DNA of 63,068 nt, counting the filler, from Reclinomonas americana ATCC 50394 (taxonomy: Eukaryota): NCBI GenBank assembly GCA_048213135.1. It is 8 parts of 3 records of this genome, joined end to end, with 100 filler letters (N's around TTAATTAATTAA, not from the genome) between each part and the next. Parts side by side here need not be neighbours in the genome. Positions count along the whole stretch, not along the records: positions 1 to 10,385 come from PS015405.1; 7 more parts are not named here. One strand, given 5' to 3'. Positions 7,301 through 8,750 of this stretch are shown here, one piece after another (position 1 is the first letter of the stretch; each line of letters begins with the position of its first letter). The translations under genes and the position numbers were made by a program. The notes beneath the pieces are model-generated. The model did no database searches. It saw nothing but the letters and a program-made list of their open reading frames with translations, and had not been told where the DNA came from.

Positions 7301-8750
7301 CTTACACCGACTGAAAGGCCATTCTGGCGCAGTGTGTGCAGTAGCGGTGACACCCTATTGCCAGCATATTGTCAGTGGCAGTGAGGACAAGACTATACGG
7401 GTGTGGTCCCTTGCGAGTTTCGAGGAAACGCGCCGACTGGTAGGCCACACTGGCACGGTGTTTGCAGTTGCAGTGACACCCGATGGCCAGCACATTGTGA
7501 GTTGCAGTGGGGACAAGACTGTACGGGTGTGGTCGATGGCAAGTGGCGAGGAGGTGCGCCGATTGGAAGGCCACACGATGTCGGTGTGTGCAGTGATAGT
7601 GACACCCGATGGCCAGCACATAGTGAGTGGCGCTTGGGACAAGACTGTACGGGTGTGGTCAGTGGCAAGTGGCGAGGAGGTGCGCCGACTGGAAGGCCAC
7701 ACGAGTTGGGTGCTTGCGGTGACTGTGACAGTCGACAGCATGCACATAGTGAGTGGGAGCAGCGATAGGACGGTGCGAGTGTGGTCACTGGCGAGTGGGG
7801 AAGAGTTGCGGCGGATTGAGGGTCACACTGACGCAGTGTTTTCTGTCGCCGTTACTCCCAATAGGCAGCACATTGTGAGCGGCAGCGAGGACAAGACTGT
7901 GCGAGTGTGGTCCCTGCCGGAAGGCTACGAAGTGCGACGATTTGAAAGACACGTTGAAACAGTGACGTCTGTTTCCGTCTCACCCGATGGCCGGCACGTT
8001 GTGAGTGGCAGTGGGGACAAGACTGTACGAGTGTGGTCGCTGGCAAGTGGCGAGGACGTGCGCCGTCAGGAAGGACACACGAATTGGGTGTGGGCAGTGG
8101 CAGCGACAACCGATGGGCAACACATTGTGAGTGGCAGTCGGGACCAGACTGTGCGAGTGTGGTCGGTGGCAAGTGGCGAGGAGGTGCGCCGATTGAATGG
8201 TCACACGAGTGAGGTGCGTGCAGTGGCAGTGACACCCGATGACCAGCATATCGTGAGTGGCAGTGCTGACATGACTGTACGGATGTGGTCATTGGCGAGT
8301 GGGGAGGAGTTGCGCCGACTGGAAGGCCACACGAGTTCGGTGTCTGCAGTGACAGTGACCCCCAATGGCCAGTATATTGTAAGTGGCAGTGTGGACAAGA
8401 CTGTACGGGTGTGGTCGATGTCAAGTGGTGAGGAGGTGCGCCGACTGGGAGGCCACACGGATGTTGTGACTGCAGTGGCAGTGACATCCGATAGCCAGCT
8501 CATCGTGAGTGGTGGTAACGACAAGACTGTTCGGGTGTGGTCGCTGGCTGCTGGTAAGGAAATGTGTCAGAGCACGCAAGAATATCTCCAGACGTTATTG
8601 TCTCGCACTTCCTTGGCTGTCGGTTGCTCTGGCAACTGCGTTCACATCCACCGGCGACATGGACGAAGAGAATTACTCGAGCGAATCATCGGCCCAGTCC
8701 GCCCTGACTTCGTCGATGCGAAAGTTGATACTAGCTGCACTCTCCTGTGA
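4310..8750 (+). CDS. NLR-like STAND protein copy 1: Ubl-HEPN-like-NACHT-pentapeptide-WD40x11-CaaX
   Basis: Exons 4310-4312 (ATG), 4380-4618, 4689-4847, 4918-5125, 5182-5383, 5443-5924, 6000-8750 splice in frame via GT-AG. Walker A GNSGAGKT; NACHT Walker B LLLLDGYDE; FxH (FVHLSLLEH); AxL pentapeptide repeats; 11 WD40 repeats; ends CTLL. Confidence 0.9.
7182..8570 (+). repeat. Coding ~126-bp WD40 tandem array (11 units), NLR copy 1
   Basis: Repeated GHT..V.AVAVTPDGQHIVSGS.DKTVRVWS.ASGEEVRRLE. Confidence 0.95.

Follow-up and report, generated by a model that had tools for sequence, protein, structure and literature searches.

What does the conserved last stretch of a family of receptor genes in the eukaryote Reclinomonas americana ATCC 50394 do, and could it place the encoded proteins on a membrane? 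The present study examined a window of 63,068 nucleotides (nt) of this genome (assembly GCA_048213135.1), the whole stretch analysed being 8 parts of 3 records joined end to end. It contains three paralogous genes, here called copies 1 to 3, which encode proteins resembling nucleotide-binding oligomerisation domain (NOD)-like receptors (NLRs), and all three end in the peptide CTLL. An original prediction, made from the DNA sequence, had read this ending as a CaaX box, the C-terminal signal for the attachment of a prenyl lipid. We consider a working CaaX box, prenylated by geranylgeranyltransferase type I (GGTase-I), to be the best single explanation for the conservation of CTLL; it is a prediction from four residues, made tentatively and with a probability of about 0.45.

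A conserved ending resembling a GGTase-I signal

All three copies had been described as ending in CTLL followed directly by a stop codon, and this was borne out, with the stop at a homologous position in 3/3 copies. The two codon sets reported for the motif also agree with the sequence as read (Table 1): the last four codons of copy 1 differ from those of copies 2 and 3 by three synonymous and no non-synonymous changes, leaving the peptide unchanged. In each copy the ending has a cysteine at position -4, an aliphatic residue at a2 and leucine at X, which is the pattern of a GGTase-I substrate. The earlier assignment of CTLL as a CaaL signal fits the rule, quoted in PMC11152559, that GGTase-I targets CaaL/I/M sequences. 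The same source describes two related boxes, CTIL and CVLL, as fully geranylgeranylated by human GGTase-I in yeast; CTLL has a1 and X in common with the former, and a2 and X in common with the latter. CTIL is also the ending of the human innate sensor OAS1 p46, for which it is described as necessary and sufficient for geranylgeranylation (PMC8357416).

If the box is used, GGTase-I would add a C20 isoprenoid (geranylgeranyl) to the cysteine of CTLL, and trimming of the terminal TLL and methylation of the newly exposed C-terminus would probably follow. Through this lipid, the receptor would be held by its sensor end to the cytosolic side of a membrane. The original prediction went further and named phagosomes as a membrane of this kind, which is speculation with no basis in the data.

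The tail that joins the last WD40 repeat to the box shows the substitution pattern of coding sequence. Between copy 1 and copies 2 and 3, the proportion of synonymous sites that differ exceeds that of non-synonymous sites (pS 0.56 vs pN 0.32; Fisher p 0.014), and the tail indels, of 12 and 3 nt, are both multiples of three. Because synonymous change outweighs non-synonymous change and the indels come in threes, translation of the tail up to the box is supported. Past the stop, the alignment of copy 1 with copies 2 and 3 is lost within ~10 nt, with TGAAATGAA alone in common. Stop-codon readthrough was considered and dropped; the in-frame extensions after TGA differ between copy 1 and copies 2 and 3. 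Directly 3' of the stop, AATGAA occurs in 3/3 copies (stop plus hexamer at 8748-8756, 25502-25494 and 32039-32031), and farther 3' the flank of copy 1 cannot be aligned to those of copies 2 and 3; the hexamer may be a 3'-end processing signal or a product of chance.

Several features of the tail bear on whether an enzyme could reach the cysteine. The stretch of 16 residues leading up to the stop is polar (HNPDFTDAKQSK- or RPDFVDAKVDTS-), and the segment that joins the last conserved block to the box varies in sequence and length among copies. An AlphaFold2 model of the WD40-plus-tail region of copy 2 (583 aa), built from an alignment of three sequences, has a mean predicted local distance difference test (pLDDT) score of 78.4. 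Residues 521-583 fall below 50 in this model, in which the tail carries two short helices of low confidence and the last ~18 residues are without secondary structure. The model is compatible with an accessible tail end. A transmembrane-like segment and an N-terminal Met-Gly are both absent from the receptors, the most hydrophobic 19-mer being a stretch of the NACHT module (PFML..VVVQVLP), and the box would therefore be their sole membrane signal.

Architecture of the receptors

The three genes are well supported as paralogous NLR-like members of the NACHT clade of signal transduction ATPases with numerous domains (STAND), as had been proposed. The NACHT family PF05729 scored 32.6 bits in copy 1 and 38.1 bits in copy 2, the two copies scanned, with a cut-off of 26.7, and the Walker A (GNSGAGKT) and Walker B (LLLLDGYDE) motifs are present in 3/3 copies. 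The proteins combine two hallmarks of the clade, a nucleoside triphosphatase (NTPase) domain with Walker A and B motifs and a C-terminal repeat domain that forms a superstructure. Their parts follow in the order of a beta-grasp-like N-terminus, the NACHT NTPase, a pentapeptide-like linker, 11-12 WD40 repeats, a tail of 53-56 aa and CTLL. The linker scores under the PF00805 cut-off in copy 1 (Table 1), and PF00805 is found at the equivalent place in the nearest database relatives.

The WD40 arrays comprise 35 repeats in total, each of 42 aa save one of 41, and these are near-identical except at hypervariable positions 4, 5, 7, 23 and 25. When repeats of copies 2 and 3 are matched out of register, their identity is 78-80%, close to the 72-88% seen in register. 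The arrays thus bear the hallmarks of concerted evolution combined with diversifying sites. Propeller blades in the AlphaFold2 model of copy 2 mostly score 85-96; the model folds the 12 repeats into ~7 + 5 blades, separated at residues 308-317 by a break of low confidence.

At the other end of the protein, the N-terminal 79 aa are 91-94% identical among copies, above the NACHT region. An AlphaFold2 model of this domain (pLDDT 60.7) has the order strand-strand-helix-strand-helix-strand. A Foldseek search with it gave no significant match (best E 0.85), its top rows all being proteins of beta-grasp type (SUMO, ubiquitin, UBL, CIDE-N and PB1); the sequence had no Pfam match at E<=1, and a search of PDB sequences with the N-terminal exon returned matches at E 0.29 and 0.48 only. 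The domain is possibly of beta-grasp (ubiquitin-like) fold, which we offer as a lead only. Altogether ~270 aa before the NACHT domain are without a Pfam match, and the ~250 aa that follow the beta-grasp-like domain have no assigned fold. HET, HeLo, Goodbye, PNP_UDP or similar fungal effector domains gave no Pfam match.

Gene models and coding status

Exon-intron models were inferred from the three-copy DNA alignment together with GT-AG junctions. Each copy has 7 exons, and the 18 GT-AG introns (6 per copy) measure 56-77 nt, those of copy 2 (57-77 nt) matching copy 1 in position; no model contains an internal stop. The long final open frames, 2.76 kb on the plus strand in copy 1 and 25500-28373 and 32037-34901 on the minus strand in copies 2 and 3, represent the last exon only, with the conserved coding segments upstream lying in other frames. 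In the three-way alignment, the changes of frame fall on six short stretches of higher divergence, each starting with GT and ending with AG. A family of frameshifted pseudogenes was rejected, given that the frame breaks are six GT-AG introns of differing lengths at identical positions and that 3/3 models are open. Intron 1 (65-67 nt) directly follows the ATG in all three models, exon 1 thus consisting of the putative start codon alone (4310-4379, 30048-29979 and 36572-36505).

Over 911-953 last-exon codons, pairwise dN/dS among the three copies comes to 0.30-0.31. All three are therefore under purifying selection and are working genes, not decaying copies. A tblastn search of the window with the copy 2 model found no fourth copy, the remaining matches falling on a Prp19-like WD40 gene.

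Table 1 Positions of the three NLR-like genes and of their parts, counted along the whole window
Feature	Position	Strand	Details
Copy 1 gene	4310..8750	+	1347 aa; exons 4310-4312, 4380-4618, 4689-4847, 4918-5125, 5182-5383, 5443-5924, 6000-8750
Copy 1 exon 2, N-terminal 79-aa domain	4380..4618	+	Region of highest conservation in the protein
Copy 1 exon 6, N-terminal half of NACHT domain	5443..5924	+	P-loop 5658-5681; Walker B 5862-5888; remainder of NOD module in exon 7, starting at 6000
Copy 1 pentapeptide-repeat-like linker, between NOD module and WD40 array	6957..7181	+	PF00805 17.6 bits, under cut-off 20.2
Copy 1 WD40 array	7182..8576	+	11 repeats of 42 aa (PF00400)
Copy 1 tail, last WD40 repeat to box	8577..8735	+	53 aa; conserved blocks ELL-x-RIIGP and PDF-x-DAK
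Copy 1 CTLL and stop	8736..8750	+	CTLL 8736-8747, TGA stop 8748-8750; TGC ACT CTC CTG TGA
Copy 2 gene	25500..30048	-	1381 aa; exons 30048-30046, 29978-29740, 29667-29509, 29440-29233, 29175-28974, 28911-28430, 28352-25500
Copy 2 WD40 array	27194-25683	-	12 repeats (PF00400)
Copy 2 tail	25682-25515	-	Counterpart of copy 1 tail
Copy 2 CTLL and stop	25500..25514	-	CTLL 25514-25503, stop 25502-25500; TGC ACG CTT CTC TGA
Copy 3 gene	32037..36572	-	1381 aa; exons 36572-36570, 36504-36266, 36189-36031, 35972-35765, 35706-35505, 35444-34963, 34889-32037
Copy 3 WD40 array	33728-32220	-	12 repeats (PF00400)
Copy 3 tail	32219-32052	-	Counterpart of copy 1 tail
Copy 3 CTLL and stop	32037..32051	-	CTLL 32051-32040, stop 32039-32037; codons as in copy 2

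Strength of the case for a prenylated ending

A number of points weigh against prenylation, beginning with the comparison on which the case for selection is built. The three copies provide one independent comparison, not two, because the tails of copies 2 and 3 sit in a tract of 99-100% identity that extends over ~750 bp (positions ~24994-25750 and 31530-32290), reaching from the NLR tail across the spacer into the 3' end of the convergent neighbour gene. The remainder of the NLR gene is 72-88% identical between these copies, and their last 63 codons hold 1 synonymous difference (dS 0.02, vs 0.44-0.46 elsewhere in the gene); the tract looks like a recent gene conversion inside an older tandem duplication. 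The tail of copy 1, which had been called strongly diverged, turned out to be moderately so: it shares 56% identity with those of copies 2 and 3 across 72 columns, and 51% across the 55 codons that precede the box. At this divergence, four residues would all be retained by chance with a probability of ~0.07 (0.51^4), or of 0.04 if calculated from the tail's non-synonymous rate; the motif was also picked post hoc among ~20 genes in the window. In addition, the string CTLL has 0 occurrences in the main text of PMC11152559, the low pLDDT of the tail may reflect a lack of information in a three-sequence alignment rather than flexibility, and the place of CTLL at the C-terminus rests on the gene model.

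Searches for relatives lend the box no further support. A word-indexed search of proteins of 526-1675 aa with the tail (copy 2 open reading frame (ORF) residues 885-957) produced 84 candidates, none of which scored. A HMMER profile of the three tails found no true relative among 1.84 billion representative proteins; its six matches at E<=0.001 were rejected as internally repetitive proteins matched over short pieces, none with a terminal tail or box. Metagenome scans with the NOD region and the tail returned 99 and 212 pattern matches, respectively, none confirmed by tblastn. With the NOD region, the word-indexed search, which can miss distant relatives, recovered 11 proteins at E<=0.001. Three of these (P0004, P0005 and P0006; two from Mortierellaceae and one metagenomic) align over 96-97% at 27-28% identity, and all three are NACHT-pentapeptide(-WD40) proteins, the metagenomic one carrying a caspase-like domain. 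These nearest NACHT-pentapeptide-WD40 relatives, 28% identical, are without such a box. In the ESM Atlas, the NOD region matched only bacterial NACHT/pentapeptide clusters, all with scores <0.9; the Atlas otherwise gave nothing but generic WD40 clusters.

The rival explanation that survives best, and which we judge unlikely, is historical accident, whereby an ancestral CTLL is merely still unchanged in two lineages and serves neither lipidation nor any other function. The single independent comparison, the retention chance of 0.04-0.07 at the divergence of the tail and the lack of tail relatives in the protein and metagenome searches are all in its favour. So is the background frequency of such endings: a CaaL-type box (C-x-[VILMF]-[LFIM]) terminates 9/1049 stop-to-stop ORFs of >=30 aa in the window, 3/9 being the present genes, which leaves 6/1046, or ~0.6%. 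One further ORF even ends in CTLL (744-899); it was set aside as a 52-aa frame in AT-rich sequence with no similarity to the NLR-like genes. Against accident, all three variable wobble positions of the motif have changed with zero replacements, and CTLL is one of two fully conserved blocks in the tail, where 3/61 four-residue windows are fully identical (RIIG, IIGP and CTLL). Both having and keeping a CaaL box would have a chance of ~0.006 x 0.05 for a pre-specified gene, a figure that rises once post-hoc choice is allowed for. None of the 131 database proteins that came up with these genes, or a WD40 neighbour, as query has a C-x-aliphatic-X ending. The original prediction took the synonymous-only changes as a sign of selection; the count of three synonymous changes and no replacement stands, but the conclusion was overstated for a single comparison with a chance of 0.04-0.07. 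Its proposed check, conservation of the box across paralogues, gives 3/3 copies in the window, two of them with non-independent tails. The case for selection on CTLL is suggestive, not statistically strong.

Also unlikely, and slightly more so in our estimate, is that CTLL has been kept for a role other than prenylation, as a PDZ-type docking peptide, an element that packs against the propeller or tail, or an S-acylated cysteine. Class I PDZ ligands have the C-terminal pattern [S/T]-x-hydrophobic, which -T-L-L-COOH fits in 3/3 copies. The tail blocks ELL-x-RIIGP and PDF-x-DAK are conserved as well, which suggests a folded or bound element and not a mere linker, and the two low-confidence helices of the AlphaFold2 model point the same way; moreover, NLRs known to be membrane-bound, such as NOD1 and NOD2 with ZDHHC5, are described as S-acylated, not prenylated. 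On the other hand, a Cys in position -4, with an aliphatic residue in -2 and a terminal Leu, is the exact spacing read by prenyltransferases, a PDZ ligand needs no cysteine, and the stretch from the last conserved block to the box differs in sequence and length as a linker would.

It is very unlikely that the real protein ends elsewhere, with an unrecognised 3' intron or alternative splicing swapping the tail. In favour of this reading, every exon boundary is inferred, and copies 2 and 3 have a donor-like cryptic site 198 nt ahead of the stop. Use of this site, which has acceptor-like sites 55 and 251 nt downstream of it, could remove the tail or shift its frame. Against it, the donor-like site is missing in copy 1, coding-type conservation with indels in multiples of three runs up to a stop in the same place, and ~10 nt beyond that stop copy 1 no longer resembles copies 2 and 3. 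The splice-site scan was crude, employing a permissive matrix built from 18 introns, and donor-like sites by this matrix are numerous within the WD repeats. There is a small probability that some transcripts are without the box.

Comparison with known sensors and receptors

The location of an NLR in the cell determines what is sensed and which partners are signalled to. Known routes of NLRs to membranes are reversible S-acylation, which NLRP3 also undergoes, N-terminal acylation, lipid-binding domains and pore-forming effector domains. Prenylation would join this list if the CTLL box is used. Open-access literature searched for CaaX or prenylation alongside NACHT, NB-ARC, NLR or NOD-like receptor yielded no directly prenylated NLR, in agreement with the earlier remark that prenylation is not known for STAND receptors. 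The terms 'prenyl' and 'CaaX' are absent from the main text of two surveys of fungal NLRs (PMC4986451 and PMC9815663), and the portions consulted of an inflammasome review handle prenylation through small GTPases only (PMC9253692). It is possible, though we would not call it probable, that the present genes are the first STAND/NLR-type receptors with a C-terminal CaaX box. An irreversible geranylgeranyl anchor would then lay the hypervariable WD40 recognition surface flat on an endomembrane, so that sensing and NACHT oligomerisation would take place in two dimensions. Such a geometry would be the opposite of that of N-terminally acylated plant NLRs and fungal C2-NACHT-WD40 proteins. A CaaX-anchored NLR would represent a new variant of lipid-anchored innate sensor, and would also offer a simple experimental handle in the form of one Cys-to-Ser change or a prenyltransferase inhibitor.

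The closest parallel for the ending itself is human OAS1 p46, an innate sensor of cytosolic double-stranded RNA whose C-terminal CaaL-type box, CTIL, is one position off CTLL and targets the protein to endomembranes (PMC8357416; cf. PMC7612834). OAS1 differs in being a nucleotidyltransferase and not a STAND NTPase, with no repeat sensor and an isoform-specific box. The guanylate-binding proteins GBP1, GBP2 and GBP5 are prenylated immune GTPases, brought by their C-terminal CaaX boxes to pathogen-containing or other membranes. As cell-autonomous defence proteins with such a box they resemble the present receptors, and they differ as dynamin-superfamily GTPases without a NACHT domain or WD40 sensor. 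A geranylgeranylated receptor in R. americana would tie NLRs to the logic of prenylated OAS1 and the GBPs, in which a sensor is placed on membranes remodelled by an invader. Among NACHT-family receptors, NOD1 and NOD2 are likewise described as dependent on a covalent lipid, S-acylation by ZDHHC5 being required for membrane recruitment and signalling (PMC8385166; 10.64898/2026.09.30.755683). Their lipid is a reversible thioester-linked acyl group on internal cysteines, attached by ZDHHC enzymes, and their sensor consists of leucine-rich repeats and not WD40 repeats.

With respect to domain architecture, the genes resemble the fungal HET-E/NWD NLRs, which likewise combine NACHT with WD40. The WD40 repeats of the fungal proteins are described as near-identical save a few hypervariable positions, with differences in repeat number and exchange between copies (PMC4986451), and high internal repeat conservation is reported for fungal NACHT-WD40 NLRs more generally (PMC4986451, PMC9815663). 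High internal conservation, few hypervariable positions, variation in repeat number and apparent exchange between copies are all seen in the window. Unlike the fungal proteins, the copies in the window have a pentapeptide-like linker; there is no close sequence kinship (best 28%, Mortierellaceae), and none of the fungal effector domains listed above was found by Pfam. In basidiomycetes, C2-NACHT-WD40 proteins are reported with a membrane-targeting C2 domain (PMC4986451; bioRxiv 10.1101/132712). That domain is N-terminal, whereas the copies in the window would use a lipid at the C-terminal sensor end. The Mortierellaceae and cyanobacterial NACHT-pentapeptide-WD40 proteins share the identical order of NACHT, pentapeptide repeats and WD40, and differ in sequence (27-28% identity), in their N-termini (caspase-like in P0006) and in having no homologous tail or CaaX box. 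If the box proves to be unused, the locus would still illustrate cleanly, in an organism other than the well-studied fungi, how repeats evolve in concert within a tandemly duplicated NACHT-WD40 family.

Neighbouring genes and sequence

Two copies of a histidine-phosphatase (His_Phos_2) gene, at 23781-25447 and 31049-31984 on the plus strand, are each convergent on an NLR copy. As this arrangement occurs twice, the duplicated unit consists of phosphatase plus NLR. The C-terminal part of the encoded protein contains a long hydrophobic stretch, which suggests a membrane anchor. Convergent to copy 1 is an ORF with leucine-rich repeats of the LRR_6 (ribonuclease-inhibitor-like) type (9146-10384, minus strand) that runs into an N run, with no NTPase domain seen adjoining. 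The ORF at 50790-51617 (minus strand) matches the Prp19 WD40 domain with 148.5 bits, under the whole-protein cut-off of 320 bits, and is probably the final exon of a gene for a splicing factor; a protein search with this Prp19-like ORF was dominated by multi-WD40 proteins. A 666-aa open frame at 38663-40660 (plus strand) has no Pfam match at E<=1e-5. The window includes 28 N runs totalling 6007 N, many of them paired runs of 44 N with 12 bases between (e.g. 10386-10429 and 10442-10485), and long CT/GA and CA/GT microsatellites flank the genes.

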